A stretch of 31,007 nt of DNA from a virus (lineage: Duplodnaviria; Heunggongvirae; Uroviricota; Caudoviricetes): IMG/VR virus record IMGVR_UViG_2917881069_000004; one strand, given 5' to 3'. Shown here in pieces: positions 5,259 to 11,885 of the stretch. Within the stretch, counting starts at the first letter, position 1, and each line of letters opens with the position of its first letter. The notes beneath the pieces are model-generated. The model did not search any database, was not told where the DNA came from, and worked only from the letters and a program-made list of their open reading frames with translations. Position numbers and translations under genes: made by a program.

Positions 5259-6112
5259 GCACCATCCTGAAATGGGCGGGAAATAAAACCGCCATTATGT
5301 CCGAACTGAAAAAGCATCTTCCTGCTGGCCCGCGACTGGTTGAACCTTTCGCGGGTTCCTGTGCAGTGATGATGGAGACGGAGTACCCCAGCTATCTTGT
5401 TGCGGATATTAATCCTGATTTAATCAACCTCTATAAAAAGGTTGCTGCTGATTGTGAATCGTTTATATCTCGCGCCAGAGTTTTATTTGAGATCGCAAAC
5501 AGGGAGGTGGCTTATTACAACATAAGGCAGGAGTTTAATTACTCAACTGAAATTACTGATTTCATGAAAGCGGTATATTTCCTGTATCTCAATCGTCACG
5601 GTTACCGTGGTTTATGTCGCTATAACAAGAGCGGGCATTTCAACATTCCCTACGGTAATTATAAAAATCCGTATTTCCCTGAAAAAGAAATTCGCGCATT
5701 TGCAGAAAAAGCCCAGCGAGCAACGTTTATCTGCGCCAGCTTTGATGAAACGCTGGCGATGTTGAAGGCGGGGGATGTGGTGTATTGCGATCCGCCGTAT
5801 GACGGTACGTTTTCCGGCTATCACACTGATGGCTTCACTGAGGATGACCAGTATCACCTGGCATCCGTTCTTGAACATCGATCATCTGAAGGTCATCCGG
5901 TCATTGTTTCTAACAGTGACACATCCCTGATTCGTTCGCTGTATCGCAATTTCACTCACCACTACATCAAGGCAAAACGCAGCATCGGCGTGTCGGCTGG
6001 CGAGAGTAAATCTGCAACAGAAATCATTGCTGTTTCCGGGGCGCGCTGCTGGGTGGGATTTGATCCTTCGCGTGGCGTGGATAGTTCTGCTGTGTACGAG
6101 GTGCGTGTATGA
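5255..6112 (+). CDS. dam: DNA N6-adenine methyltransferase (Dam-like), orphan
   Basis: About 285 aa starting [11 protein letters not shown] with GGAGG 7 nt upstream. Motif I-like PFAGSCAV and catalytic DPPY ([10 protein letters not shown]) are present. No adjacent restriction endonuclease candidate. Confidence 0.85.
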
Positions 6113-8522
6113 GTCATGACGATATGAGCAACTCTAGCGGCTTTAACGAGGCCGCAGCAGCATTTTCATGGAACGGCCCGAAAAAGGCCATTAACCCTTA
6201 TCTGGACCCGGCGGAAGTTGCGCCGGTTTCTGCGCTTTCAAACCTGATCACTCTGTACGCTGCCGATAACGAGCAGGAACAACTGCGCCGCGAGGCACTG
6301 AGTGATCAGGTCTGGGAGCGTTATTTCTTTAATGAATCCCGTGATCCTGTCCAACGCGAAATGGAGCAGGATAAGCTCATTAGCCGGGCAAAGCTGGCGC
6401 ATGAGCAGCAGCGTTTTAATCCAGATATGGTCATTCTGGCGGACGTCAATGCCCAGCCTTCCCATATCAGCAAGCCGCTGATGCAACGTATTGAATACTT
6501 CAGCAGCCTGGGCAGGCCAAAGGCTTATTCCCGCTATTTGCGTGAGACGATTAAGCCATGTCTGGAACGACTGGAGCATGTACGCGACAGTCAGCTATCC
6601 ACTTCTTTTCGCTTTATGGCAAGCCATGAAGGGCTGGACGGCCTGCTGATCCTGCCTGAAATGAGTCAGGATCAGGTGAAACGCTTGTCTACCCTTGTCG
6701 CTGCGCATATGAGCATGTGCCTTGATGCAGCTTGTGGCGATTTGTATGTCACCGATGACGTTAAGCCAGAAGAAATCCGCAATACATGGGAAAAGGTGGC
6801 AGCGGAAACCCTGCGTCTGGATGTCATCCCGCCTGCGTTTGAGCAACTCCGCCGGAAAAGAAACCGCCGTAAACCCGTGCCCTATGAACTCATTCCGGGT
6901 TCGCTGGCGCGTATGTTGTGCGCTGACTGGTGGTACCGGAAATTATGGAAGATGCGTTGCGAATGGCGGGAAGAGCAGTTGCGTGCTGTCTGCCTGGTCA
7001 GCAAAAAAGCATCTCCCTATGTCAGCTATGAAGCCGTGATGCATAAACGTGAGCAGCGCCGTAAGTCGCTGGAGTTTTTTCGTTCTCATGAACTGGTGAA
7101 CGAAGACGGCGACACGCTGGACATGGAGGATGTGGTAAACGCCAGCAGCAGCAACTCTGCGCATCGCCGCAATGAGATGATGGCCTGTGTTAAAGGCCTG
7201 GAGCTTATCGCGGAAATGCGCGGTGACTGCGCCGTTTTCTACACCATCACCTGTCCGTCACGTTTCCATTCCACGCTAAATAACGGCAGGCCCAACCCGA
7301 CCTGGACAAATGCGACGGTAAGACAAAGCAGTGATTATCTGGTCGGCATGTTTGCTGCATTTCGTAAGGCGATGCACAAAGCCGGATTGCGCTGGTATGG
7401 CGTGCGGGTGGCTGAGCCGCATCATGACGGTACAGTTCACTGGCACCTGTTGTGTTTTATGCGCAAAAAAGATCGCCGCGCCATTACTGCTTTGTTGCGT
7501 AAGTTTGCCATTCGTGAAGACCGCGAGGAGCTGGGGAATAACACGGGACCACGCTTTAAGTCTGAGTTGATTAACCCGCGCAAAGGAACGCCGACAAGCT
7601 ACATCGCGAAATATATCAGCAAGAACATTGACGGGCGTGGTCTGGCTGGCGAGATCAGCAAGGAAACGGGTAAATCTCTGCGTGATAACGCTGAATACGT
7701 TAATGCCTGGGCGTCTCTGCATCGTGTTCAGCAATTCCGCTTCTTTGGTATTCCGGGGCGTCAGGCTTACCGTGAACTGCGATTGCTGGCTGGTCAGGCG
7801 GCAAGGCAACAGGGCGACAAAAAGCAGGTGCGCCGGTACTGGATAACCCGCGCCTTGATGCCATCCTGGCTGCTGCTGATGCTGGTTGTTTTGCCACTTA
7901 CATCATGAAGCAGGGTGGTGTACTGGTTCCCCGCAAATATCACCTCATCAGAACTGCTTATGAAATTAACGAAGAGCCGACCGCCTATGGCGATCACGGC
8001 ATTCGTATTTATGGCATCTGGTCACCCATTGCAGAGGGCAAGATCTGCACTCATGCAGTGAAGTGGAAAATGGTTCGTAAAGCCGTTGACGTTCAGGAGG
8101 CGGTAGCCGACCAGGGCGCTTGCGCCCCTTGGACTCGTGGCAATAACTGTCCCCTTGCTGAAAATTTGAACCAACATGAGAAAGATAAATCAGCAGACGG
8201 GGATACCAGAACGGACATTTCCTGCATGGATGACAAGGAATTGCACGATTACCTGCACAGTATGGGCAAAAAAGAGCACCGGGAACTGGCAGCAAGATTA
8301 CGCCTGGTTAAACCGAAACGGCGTAAAGACCACAAACAGCGAATTACAGACCATCAGCGTCAGCAGCTCGTCTATGAACTGAAGTCCAGAGGATTTGATG
8401 GCAGCGAGAAAGAAGTCGATTTACTGCTTCGTGGCGGCAGTATTCCGTCAGGAGCAGGCCTGCGTATCTTCTATCGGAACCAGCGTTTGCAGGAAGATGA
8501 TAAGTGGCGGGATCTGTATTAA
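6109..8522 (+). CDS. A: Rolling-circle replication initiator (P2 gpA-like); apparent 1-nt frame shift near 7810-7820
   Basis: HUH-type motif [10 protein letters not shown]. Track ORFs 6109..7908 and 7905..8522 are continuous in sense (..QGDKK / [32 protein letters not shown]..) if the A5 run is A6. Confidence 0.8.
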
Positions 8523-8676: not shown

Positions 8677-8865
8677 ATGCAGGACTATTTTTGGGAGTCT
8701 TTGAAGCTCCAGCGCATTGATTTTTTTCTTAAGCTTGTAGCGGCTAGTGAGTGTAGCGATGAAGAGAAGGGGCTGGCTCTGCAGTGGGTTTCTGAATTGA
8801 CTGATGAGTTGATGGCGAAAATTCGAAGCCATGAATACAGTAGGTCGATGGATGTAATCAGTTGA
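8677..8865 (+). CDS. Small protein (62 aa) under a LexA box; candidate SOS-induced antirepressor or moron
   Basis: Strong RBS (TAGGAGGAAAG then ATG). Occupies the position of 186 tum (between A and cos) in a phage with a 186-type CI. No sequence resemblance to DinI recognised. Confidence 0.55.
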   Translation: MQDYFWESLKLQRIDFFLKLVAASECSDEEKGLALQWVSELTDELMAKIRSHEYSRSMDVIS

Positions 8866-8898
8866 GCTTGTTTCGTTAGGACTTGATAAGGGAACCGA

Positions 8899-8919
8899 AA
8901 AGGGGCATTAAGCCCCTTT
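8899..8919. terminator. Bidirectional hairpin between convergent genes
   Basis: AAAGGGGC-attaa-GCCCCTTT, an 8-bp stem, between the stop of 8677..8865 (+) and the stop of 8933..9232 (-). Flanking U-tracts are short. Confidence 0.45.
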
Positions 8920-8932
8920 CTCATAAGTTGAT

Positions 8933-9232
8933 TTAGTTGTTCCCCAAAGAGCCGGCCATGGCTGCATATTTAATTTCTTCGCTGGGTATTTCAGGATGTA
9001 GTTGAATTTGCCTGATGACATAGCCAGGAACTTCGTCACTCCACAGTTTCGCCGCGTCCTTACAGACCTTATACGCGAAGTCTCTATTCTCAAAGGCATA
9101 GGATTTTCCGTATGCATATTGCTGACAGGCATGAACATAAGCTCCGAAGTCGCCGTCTTTATCTGGCAAAGCACATCCAGCCAAGGCTATGATGATTGCT
9201 ACTAACGTAAAGGAGAAAGTTATACGTTTCAT
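8933..9232 (-). CDS. Small lipoprotein (99 aa), unknown function
   Basis: Signal peptide with lipobox LAGC (MKRITFSFTLVAIIIALAGC..). Located in the A-Q variable island. Confidence 0.65.
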   Translation of the reverse strand: MKRITFSFTLVAIIIALAGCALPDKDGDFGAYVHACQQYAYGKSYAFENRDFAYKVCKDAAKLWSDEVPGYVIRQIQLHPEIPSEEIKYAAMAGSLGNN

Positions 9233-9340
9233 GGTCTCTTTCTAAGCGTTTAGCATTATTTAACTAAGGGGTATCTGCCGTGATTTGGTAGTCCCTGATA
9301 TATATTCTCAGGGACTATGCTGAAGTAGCTTTAATTTCGA

Positions 9341-10147
9341 TTATTTAGAAAGGTACTTATCTCTAAGTTGATTCAGTCTGTCAGCATCGCGTTCTGAAAA
9401 CTCGGCGTCACCATAGATCGATTTCCCATCTGCGTCTTCAAGGCCAATGACTGTGACGGTAAATATAGCATCAGCCGGAACTTTAAGTTTTCCCCAATCA
9501 GAGTATCTATTAGGGGCTAATTTCCAGTTGGCTTTCTCACCTGGTTCCAGACCTCCAGAAATTTTATAGTTGAAGACGTCAGAGAACCAAGGGACGCTTC
9601 TTCCTGGACTGGCAATAACTCCTTTGAAGAATACTCTGGCAACCGCTTTGTCTGTTCCGTTTTCAACGCTAATATCCAGAATTGGCTGATCATTGCCGTA
9701 ATCCTCTTTCTGGAAATAAAAACGGGAACGTTCGACCTTGAAGGCTTTCATTTTTTCCGCAGCCTGTGTTGCAGAGGTTTGTTTGGCTTCCAGTTCTTTT
9801 ATTTCTTGCAGAGCCTGTTCTTTCTCTCTCTTCTCACGCTCAAGGCGAATAGTTTGTGCGTAATTTATAACCTCATCACCAGTTTTACCTTCCAACGCTG
9901 ACTTAATTTTTGTTTCGTAGACGTCCCCAGAAGACGTTCCAGCCTGCATTAGCTCTCTCATGTTGATTTGGCTAAAGGCAACGACTTTAACTGCATCATC
10001 AAACTGAGCTTTTTTATCTGCAGGTAAGGACTCTCTTACTTTTTGAATGGACTCTTTCATCGACTGATCGCTTGATGCATCGATCTTCGGTTTGTCACAA
10101 GCAGTAAGCAGCAGAGCAAAAGCAATTACGCCAGTTAATTTCTTCAT
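9341..10147 (-). CDS. Lipoprotein (about 267 aa), unknown function
   Basis: Track ORF 9341..10219. The likely true start is the internal ATG at 10147 (MKKLTGVIAFALLLTAC, lipobox LLTAC), because the upstream extension is the translation of a hairpin plus T-run. Central Lys/Glu-rich predicted coiled region. Confidence 0.65.
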   Translation of the reverse strand: MKKLTGVIAFALLLTACDKPKIDASSDQSMKESIQKVRESLPADKKAQFDDAVKVVAFSQINMRELMQAGTSSGDVYETKIKSALEGKTGDEVINYAQTIRLEREKREKEQALQEIKELEAKQTSATQAAEKMKAFKVERSRFYFQKEDYGNDQPILDISVENGTDKAVARVFFKGVIASPGRSVPWFSDVFNYKISGGLEPGEKANWKLAPNRYSDWGKLKVPADAIFTVTVIGLEDADGKSIYGDAEFSERDADRLNQLRDKYLSK

Positions 10148-10161
10148 ATCCCTATCCCAAT

Positions 10162-10197
10162 CGTAAAAAAACAAGGCTAATCCTAACAGGATTAGCT
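10162..10197 (-). terminator. Terminator-like hairpin plus U-tract in the leader of the lipoprotein gene
   Basis: On the minus strand CTAATCCT-gtt-AGGATTAG (perfect 8-bp stem) is followed by CCTTGTTTTTTT, 15 nt upstream of the ATG at 10147. A candidate -35/-10 pair (TTTATA-17-TATGAG) lies just upstream. Confidence 0.5.
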
Positions 10198-10662
10198 GGC
10201 ATGACAAACTCATAGCCATATAGGTGTGCTGTATAAATTAGCGGGATGAGAAAGCCTGCGCAGCCCCTCATGTTGAAACTTGATTTTAGCTCAAAAGAGC
10301 TGACACTAAATAACTGCGCGGAATAATGCTCCACTTTCGGTTAGCCCTTGCTGGGTAAGGCGTGGGGCCGTTTTCTTCGCCTGATCCTGCTGTATCTGGC
10401 CTACAGTATGTTGCCCTTACGCGACATGCCACATGTCAGTAAACGGCAGGTGTAGCAGTATTAGACGCAGCTATTTAGTGTGTATTAAGCTGGCTCATAT
10501 TTATGACTGGTTTCAAGGTTTGACCGATTTTCATGTCATGCATGTCTATGCTGCATGAGTTCGCATGATCGTTTGAGGATCGGTTTGGCTAAGACATGCC
10601 AGAACTGGCGGGCTTTTGCTCATGTCATGCAGGTGCATGAAAACCACTACATAAAGCGGGCA

Positions 10663-10681: not shown

Positions 10682-10770
10682 CGCGCGCAACGGGGTAAAA
10701 TGGCCAAAATCCGGCACAGCCTCTGGCCCGCTGGCGGCCTCATTTAGTGGAGGGGGGGCGATGTCAGGGC

Positions 10771-10806
10771 AAAAAGAAACGCCCCGCAGAATGCTGCTGA
10801 GGCGTT
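10771..10806 (-). terminator. Possible terminator of the leftward P-Q late operon
   Basis: AACGCC / GGCGTT arms with an internal GCAG/CTGC mini-stem, followed on the minus strand by a T-run; about 40 nt downstream of the Q stop. Loop is long, so weak. Confidence 0.3.
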
Positions 10807-10841
10807 GTGAGAGTTGGTCGGTTATTGATGTTATGAGTATG

Positions 10842-11885
10842 TCAGCTTCGTTTGCCCTTAAGTCCTAAGTCATAGGCTTCAAAACGGATAACCTCTTCAT
10901 CCAGCCAGTCATTCAGCTCCTGCAGTCGCTTTTGCAGGGGCATCAGTTCATTGCGGACGAAGACACGGCTCGCTTTTTCCACATCCCCAAAGCCGCCAGT
11001 GTTGTTGGGAATGATGCCCATCATTTGCGGCGGTACGCGGTGAGCCGCCATCATGTCATCGCGGCTGACGTTCTTGATGTTCAGAAATTCATCCTTCGCC
11101 GCGACTTCCGACAACGGGATAATCTGAATGCCATCTTTTTTGCCGTTAGGCGAGTACATAAACAGGTTGCGGAAGTTGCCCGGTCCTTTAGCACTTTTCA
11201 TTGCCTTGCGGATGTTGTTCACATCCTCCTGGTTCTGTGCGGCGTCGGTCATGTACATGATGAAGCCTGCGTGGCTGCCGTTAATGTAATACTTGCGGCG
11301 GAACAGCGTGGCGGATTCGTTGAGCAGAGCTGACGGAATGGCAGAAAGGTAACCCGGCAGACCATAAATCTCCTGGTTGATATCCGGCTCCATCAGGTGG
11401 AAGACGTTACCTTTTGTGAACTGATACGGCTGTGTCGTCAGGCTGTATTGCACAAACCAGTATGTTTCAAGGTCAAGCCCGCGTCGGGTGTATTTTGCCA
11501 GTGCAGGCTCCAGCGAAATAACTTCACCAAAGCGGTTCGTGCGTTTCTCCAGGTAGGCGTTACCAAAAACCAGATAGTCCTGCACAAAACGGGTAAATGC
11601 CTGCTGGCTGAGAAGGCGATGTGGAATATAGGTACTGCTGATAATGTCACGCTTAACACTGATCGGGGAGCTGTGGTGCACGGCGGCGCGGAAGGTGCGC
11701 GCCAGTCCGTCAAAGCTGACGGGTGGCTCATACCAGCGATCCATCTGTACGCATTCCACATAGTCCAGCAGTTCGCGGCGGTCCAGTACAGGAATGGGAT
11801 CACCAAAGCTGAAAGCCTCCGCAACGGGTTTTTTAGTTTCTTCTGCAGTTACGGTTTCGCCTGGCGCGATATGTTCTTTCATCAA
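10842..11885 (-). CDS. Q: Portal protein (P2 gpQ-like)
   Basis: 347 aa (P2 Q is about 344 aa). Start overlaps the terminase stop. Position next to cos. Confidence 0.85.
   Translation of the reverse strand: MMKEHIAPGETVTAEETKKPVAEAFSFGDPIPVLDRRELLDYVECVQMDRWYEPPVSFDGLARTFRAAVHHSSPISVKRDIISSTYIPHRLLSQQAFTRFVQDYLVFGNAYLEKRTNRFGEVISLEPALAKYTRRGLDLETYWFVQYSLTTQPYQFTKGNVFHLMEPDINQEIYGLPGYLSAIPSALLNESATLFRRKYYINGSHAGFIMYMTDAAQNQEDVNNIRKAMKSAKGPGNFRNLFMYSPNGKKDGIQIIPLSEVAAKDEFLNIKNVSRDDMMAAHRVPPQMMGIIPNNTGGFGDVEKASRVFVRNELMPLQKRLQELNDWLDEEVIRFEAYDLGLKGKRS

Follow-up and report, generated by a model that had tools for sequence, protein, structure and literature searches.

A palindrome between two lipoprotein genes of a P2-like prophage most likely forms a non-terminating mRNA stem-loop

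The window, by which we mean the whole 31,007-nt stretch of DNA analyzed here, is a P2-like prophage. The palindrome under study lies in its variable cargo slot, which runs from the replication gene (6109-8522) to the portal gene (10842-11885). The slot with replication protein gpA on one side and portal protein gpQ on the other is a hotspot of genetic diversity in P2-like phages (Rousset et al., PMC9122126). In the window it is occupied by two minus-strand genes, one for a DUF6694 lipoprotein and one for a 99-aa lipoprotein. The features of the locus are as follows, from upstream to downstream on the minus strand.

10180-10207, minus strand: promoter-like site for the operon, TTGTCA, 16 nt, TAGGAT, with TG ahead of the second hexamer.
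9341-10147, minus strand: DUF6694 lipoprotein gene, the upstream cistron, 268 aa from MKKLTGVIAFALLLTAC, stop codon at 9341-9343.
9289-9317, minus strand: predicted intercistronic stem-loop, in the mRNA sense UAGUCCCUGA-GAAUAUAUA-UCAGGGACUA, 10 bp with a 9-nt loop, -16.1 kcal/mol, without a U-tract.
9233-9288, minus strand: spacer from the hairpin to the second cistron, 56 nt, C 14 versus G 9.
8933-9232, minus strand: 99-aa lipoprotein gene, the downstream cistron, lipobox LAGC, ATG at 9230-9232, phrog_7666.
8890-8919, minus strand: terminator-like hairpin past the second cistron, AAAGGGGC-UUAAU-GCCCCUUU and then UCGGUU.

The DUF6694 protein matched Pfam PF20404 (E = 3.5e-22) and phrog_7468, and RefSeq names it 'DUF6694 family lipoprotein'. 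The open reading frame list and the RefSeq chromosome annotation give this protein 292 aa from an ATG at 10219; plasmid copies are annotated with 268 aa. The lipoprotein signal peptide with its lipobox begins at 10147, and the promoter-like site falls within the 72-nt extension (10147-10219). The homologue of the 99-aa lipoprotein in Klebsiella phage ST13-OXA48phi12.3 is annotated 'lipoprotein'. PADLOC gave no match for either lipoprotein, PHROGs returned only families of unknown function, and a literature search for DUF6694 found nothing.

Both ends of the gene pair carry conserved signals. Across five diverged lineages, TGTTAGGATTA in the promoter-like site is invariant and TTGTCN is kept in four of the five. 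The GC hairpin and T-rich tail after the second gene are also found in L016, L111, L096 and L003, that is, in every lineage examined. Between the two genes (9233-9340), a consensus scan, which may miss weak promoters, found no promoter-like site, and by eye no -35/-10 pair had its key bases conserved in the loop or spacer across variants. In the Klebsiella phage the small lipoprotein gene starts 10 nt behind another gene, which leaves no room there for a promoter of its own. A promoter-like site before the first gene, none found in the gap, and a hairpin with a T-rich tail after the second gene together give the anatomy of one operon, and on this basis the two lipoprotein genes are predicted to be co-transcribed.

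Two further elements lie at the edges of this operon. An inverted repeat at 10176-10196, GCTAATCCT-gtt-AGGATTAGC, is perfect over 9 bp and has a T-run behind it, and it was flagged as terminator-like. Part of it coincides with the second hexamer of the promoter predicted for the operon. The 3′ half of the repeat (TGTTAGGATTA) does not vary in the five lineages, and the 5′ arm is not retained in E. hormaechei or L100. A terminator is the less likely reading of this repeat; promoter sequence, possibly including an operator, is the more likely one. At the other edge, a plus-strand 62-aa ORF (8677-8865; phrog_698, RefSeq hypothetical, function unassigned) converges on the small lipoprotein gene. 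The hairpin at 8899-8919, common to both, is likely a bidirectional terminator.

The initial annotation had reported a perfect 10-bp inverted repeat with a 9-nt spacer at 9289-9317, and a check of the sequence returned exactly that: TAGTCCCTGA (9289-9298), tatatattc (9299-9307) and TCAGGGACTA (9308-9317). Its placement between the stop codon of the larger lipoprotein gene (9341-9343) and the ATG of the smaller one (9230-9232), both on the minus strand, was also correct. The gap is 108 nt long, and the palindrome lies 23 nt past the DUF6694 stop codon and 56 nt ahead of the second start codon. It is the sole perfect 10-bp inverted repeat with a 3-20 nt spacer in the window. At least one such repeat appeared in 37% of 300 dinucleotide-preserving shuffles of the window (mean 0.59), so the bare palindrome is not significant window-wide. 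When the 108-nt spacer alone was shuffled, 0.2% of the shuffles yielded a perfect 10-bp inverted repeat. Judging from the sequences compared below, the palindrome appears to be more than chance because diverged relatives retain it.

On the sense (minus) strand the hairpin folds with -16.1 kcal/mol (z = -5.1); the plus strand gives -16.8 kcal/mol. Five of the 10 stem pairs are G-C, which gives the stable GC-containing stem-loop of an intrinsic terminator. Efficient intrinsic termination by E. coli RNA polymerase also requires a U-tract directly behind the stem, with some 5 or more U within 8 nt. Here the tail, CCAAAUCAC, has one U. There is no T-run after the palindrome on either strand, and the hairpin was not among the predictions of a terminator scan of the window, which agrees with the earlier statement that the repeat lacks a flanking U-tract and is no canonical terminator. 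Rfam 15 gave no match at the gathering score in the window and none at E up to 5 in 8850-10300. An integron attC site was considered and rejected: the nearest core-like heptamer found by eye, GTTTAGC at 9248-9254, has one mismatch to GTTRRRY and the wrong orientation.

We found the island in 23 of 5426 complete E. coli genomes at at least 99% identity, among them that of strain MS 115-1 (NZ_CP146665.1). A 41-nt query centred on the palindrome hit one place per genome in 22 of these genomes, always in this island, and the 22 copies that still span the stretch all carry the palindrome unchanged. The initial annotation had named absence from otherwise identical islands as something that would refute its interpretation. 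No such absence was seen, the lone exception being a copy truncated by IS1 at 9328, on plasmid pYLPM4b (L002). A second copy of the same palindrome, which the initial annotation had suggested looking for, was found neither elsewhere in the window nor elsewhere in the E. coli genomes searched. In IMG/VR, exact arms with a 3-20 nt spacer occurred in 10 copies of the island and in one high-GC sequence (L007), which we rejected as an unrelated chance match. A metagenome scan for close relatives added only near-identical copies. With a single copy in the window and one per genome, confined to the island, the palindrome is neither a dispersed repeat (REP/BIME and similar) nor a site common to a regulon.

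On plasmid pEH10-18-47_2 (L001) and metagenome contig L178, an end reading GGAAGGTGCGAATAAG, which we take to be an IS5 end, adjoins position 9243. Small E. coli plasmids have acquired the DUF6694 gene as an IS-bounded fragment. We considered these plasmid copies as proof that the hairpin travels with the DUF6694 gene and rejected this, because their junctions are IS ends; being IS-truncated, they carry no information on selection. IS1 also lies inside the island in two chromosomal copies (ECONIH4 and CAVP776).

Besides the cassette of the window, five diverged versions were obtained through protein searches and retrieval of the loci. The six versions come from Escherichia, Citrobacter, Enterobacter and metagenomes, with protein identities of 76-100% (100, 95, 95, 79, 77 and 76%). 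The five diverged versions are as follows.

Citrobacter sp. L016: 95% protein identity; small lipoprotein gene downstream.
IMG/VR contigs L110 and L111: 95% protein identity; small lipoprotein gene downstream.
Metagenome contig L100: 79% protein identity; apparently decayed copy of the small lipoprotein gene downstream.
Metagenome contig L099: 77% protein identity; no small lipoprotein gene downstream.
Enterobacter hormaechei phage-plasmid-like contigs L096-L098 and L112: 76% protein identity; small lipoprotein gene downstream.

The homologue in L100 (2440-2556) begins with ATA where a start codon would be expected, its lipobox Cys is replaced by Tyr, and it looks like a decaying copy. L099 has no small lipoprotein gene and retains a short stretch like its start region. 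The two-gene cassette with its hairpin lies in E. hormaechei in a phage-plasmid-like element, whose products include the alpha subunit of a DNA polymerase III and a gp32-like protein. In the related Klebsiella phage ST13-OXA48phi12.3 (L003) the corresponding place holds the small lipoprotein only. As the cassette is found both in this phage-plasmid-like element and in the P2-like prophage, it has moved between unrelated phage types.

A hairpin is present 23-26 nt past the stop codon in all six versions. Its loops are 9, 7, 5, 6, 9 and 9 nt long, its stems 8-12 bp, and its folding energies -11.6 to -16.9 kcal/mol. None of the six has a U-tract; T makes up 2 or fewer of the 8 nt that follow the stem. 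In the lineages of 76-79% protein identity the spacer is about 60-70% identical. Mean column conservation was 0.90 for both arms versus 0.71-0.78 for the flanks, which makes the arms the best-conserved part of the spacer. Outside the arms, the final ~25 nt of the spacer at 9233-9288, including the ribosome-binding region, are identical in Citrobacter L016.

Four stem pairs vary, as U-A/U-G/C-G, G-C/G-U, A-U/G-U and U-A/U-G. The share of stem cells that pair was 91%, versus 36-51% when the 3′ partner was slid by 1-3 columns. The G·U pairs form on the gene-sense strand only; on the opposite strand they are A·C mismatches. Folding of the sense strand beats that of the antisense strand by 2.1-5.6 kcal/mol in each of the five non-identical variants. 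Some substitutions break pairs: L099 loses its three outer pairs, L100 has one internal A·G, and L096 loses its outer pair.

Statistical tests of covariation were not significant, either with five variants or with six. No pair shows a double-sided change relative to its commonest form among the six variants, and the RNAalifold covariation term was about 0. In column shuffles the observed values were reached in 358 of 500 (cells paired) and 317 of 500 (covariation score). Given the weak covariation and the pair-breaking changes, a recent shared ancestry could explain part of the conservation seen in the arms. The sequence comparison is therefore consistent with selection on the stem and is not statistically decisive, and we claim no statistical covariation.

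The initial annotation had offered two readings of the palindrome: an operator for a dimeric regulator, or an RNA processing or stabilising stem that separates the two cistrons. As an operator, it would be bound by a dimeric prophage or host regulator that controls a promoter of the small lipoprotein gene. The dyad is perfect over 10 bp, its centre is AT-rich and it lies 57-85 nt ahead of the start codon, all of which fits such a site, and so do the outer half-sites TAGTCCC and GGGACTA, which are the best-conserved bases. However, the span of these half-sites is 29, 31, 29, 30, 31 and 31 bp in the six versions with loops of 5-9 nt, so the fixed spacing of an operator is not kept. The inner half-sites have lost their DNA symmetry in five of the six variants, and it is the RNA pairing that is held there, through G·U. 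Nor does the setting favour a regulator: the consensus scan gave no promoter-like site in the spacer for it to control, the palindrome is present once in the window and once per genome in the 22 E. coli genomes, and L099 retains the hairpin although it has no small lipoprotein gene. None of the three neighbouring products matched any Pfam family, so no DNA-binding domain was detected among them, though a regulator may be encoded farther away. The palindrome is probably not a regulator binding site; we regard the operator as the least likely reading and a very improbable one.

The other reading fared better. The stem is kept in six cassettes, several of its changes are G·U pairs that form on the sense strand only, and no version has a U-tract, which favours the proposed stem in the RNA between the cistrons. 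The better folding of the sense strand (2.1-5.6 kcal/mol) fits it as well, as does the presence of a T-rich-tailed GC hairpin after the second gene only. We rejected a processing site for RNase III. Such a site calls for an RNA duplex some two helical turns long (about 20 bp), and the stems of all variants are 8-12 bp.

DUF6694 genes are common phage cargo, with 73 loci in IMG/VR. Among DUF6694 genes less than 75% identical to that of the window, 56 of 121 distinct 3′ flanks show a stem with a T-run behind it no more than 100 nt past the stop codon. These 56 terminator-like stems start at a median of 16 nt past the stop; typical examples are AAACCCGCTTCGGCGGGTTTTTTTATG. In the clade of at least 75% identity, none of the eight distinct 3′ flanks has a stem with a T-run. 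The small lipoprotein gene adjoins only members of this clade, and is also found alone in Klebsiella phages. The Serratia/L101 genes, which are 69% identical, have a 3′ UTR that shares sequence with L099 downstream of the hairpin, and carry a canonical terminator where the 5′ half of the window's hairpin lies. We infer that the U-less hairpin takes the place of the cassette terminator in the form of the cassette with a second gene behind it. A comparison of terminator absence with the presence of a co-oriented downstream gene in the 121 distant loci was uninformative, as the ORF criterion was too permissive.

A hairpin in the place of a terminator could also be a functionless relic. It would then be left over from the terminator region that a DUF6694 cassette had while still solitary, before it was joined to the small lipoprotein gene, and it would persist only through the youth of the copies. 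In favour of this, the related 3′ UTR of Serratia/L101 has a canonical terminator at the same place, and the covariation statistics are not significant. Every E. coli copy is at least 99% identical, and on the IS-ridden plasmid pYLPM4b the DUF6694 gene persists after an IS1 end removed the hairpin. Against this, all versions keep a hairpin of -11.6 to -16.9 kcal/mol despite divergence of the spacer and indels in the loop, and the sense strand consistently folds better. We consider a mere relic quite unlikely.

The hairpin could alternatively be a weak or conditional transcription attenuator that pauses or partly terminates the polymerase, or acts with Rho on the C-rich spacer. The small lipoprotein gene would then be transcribed less than the DUF6694 gene, and control would lie at transcription rather than at RNA stability. 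The position fits, since more distant DUF6694 cassettes have intrinsic terminators there, and the stem is stable (-16 kcal/mol). The downstream spacer is C-rich relative to G, and in E. coli rut sites directly follow such structures (PMC6061677). Among the six variants, C/G downstream of the hairpin is 1.44-1.71 in five and 0.71 in L099, over only 53-58 nt. On the other side, no more than 2 of the 8 nt behind the stem are T in any of the six variants, and just 56 nt of untranslated RNA precede the next start codon, a short stretch for Rho to load on. Attenuation is the nearest rival and overlaps the explanation that we prefer; on balance we think it possible but unlikely.

The explanation that we prefer is that the palindrome most likely gives the mRNA a stem-loop in the gap that separates two lipoprotein genes predicted to be transcribed together. 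It would be an ordinary stem-loop of the sort that guards RNA ends and does not terminate transcription. More specifically, we give about an even chance to a sense-strand RNA stem-loop without a U-tract, past which transcription would continue to the second gene and which would protect or define the 3′ end of the upstream cistron. In this scheme RNA polymerase would initiate at the promoter-like site at 10207-10180, transcribe the DUF6694 gene and read past the hairpin, since a U-tract that would release the polymerase is lacking there. It would go on through the 99-aa lipoprotein gene and stop at the GC hairpin with the T-rich tail (8919-8890). Transcripts cut or Rho-terminated in the C-rich spacer past the hairpin would be trimmed by 3′-5′ exonucleases to the base of the stem, and the product would be a protected mRNA of the DUF6694 gene alone. 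Protection of this 3′ end is expected to give the two cistrons different stabilities. The hairpin would in this way set the relative amounts of the two lipoproteins: we propose that, with the upstream message stabilised by the stem, they are made in unequal amounts.

Such elements are known in E. coli, where stem-loops without a U-tract sit at precisely defined 3′ ends of steady-state RNA and shield these ends from PNPase and RNase II (Dar and Sorek 2018, PMC6061677). The transcripts of this class are Rho-dependent or processed, with a mild excess of C over G downstream and rut sites immediately downstream (PMC6061677). The stem-loop of the window resembles this class in being stable, of terminator-like size and energy, without a U-rich tail and shortly past a stop codon; the mild excess of C over G that follows it in five of the six variants may be a further resemblance. 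Unlike members of the class, it is known from sequence alone and lies within a predicted operon, 56 nt before a start codon, and not where a transcription unit ends.

Intercistronic hairpins associated with differential mRNA stability are also known, such as the REP sequence in E. coli malE-malF and the hairpin of the puf operon in Rhodobacter capsulatus. Like these, the hairpin of the window lies between cistrons, is not a terminator and is expected to slow 3′-5′ decay of the upstream message. Its stem is shorter than theirs and single, and unlike a REP element it occurs once per genome and has no sequence likeness to one. With the intrinsic terminators of solitary DUF6694 cassettes and phage morons it shares the position past the stop and a comparable stem, and the 3′ UTR of the window's clade is partly related to a terminator-bearing one. 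It differs from them in having no U-tract in any of the six versions, and in being followed by a co-oriented gene with its own terminator-like hairpin.

A bolder version of the scheme makes the hairpin and the C-rich spacer a regulated switch, either an attenuator coupled to Rho or translation or a site for a phage or host RNA-binding protein. We regard this as improbable. If it were true, expression of the small lipoprotein would be conditional, for example on the state of the prophage or on envelope stress, and a conditional control would lie inside a cargo cassette that moves between unrelated phage types. Under the non-terminating stem-loop that we prefer, the two lipoprotein genes of the P2 gpA-gpQ slot would form one operon with an internal stem-loop and would not be independently regulated. 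The locus illustrates how a cargo cassette that, as a solitary unit, normally finishes with a terminator can occur without the U-tract when a second gene follows. This aids the annotation of such cassettes, and constructs cloned to study lipoprotein function should retain the hairpin and the spacer. The gain is modest and opens no new mechanistic question.

Two other differences were observed around the cargo slot. The replication gene (gpA homologue, 6109-8522) is split into ORFs of 599 and 205 aa by a 1-nt deletion in an A-run near 7819. The window has A5 there, and strain C 236-04A, in which the gene is intact at 804 aa, has A6. This is a homopolymer sequencing error or else the prophage is replication-defective. 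Strain C 236-04A (L004, 6006-8224) has three further genes (368, 139 and 221 aa, 'hypothetical') between the DUF6694 and portal genes. When L004 was compared with the window at 10688-10842, homology ended at 10688, and a 14-nt indel at a short direct repeat lies near 10347.
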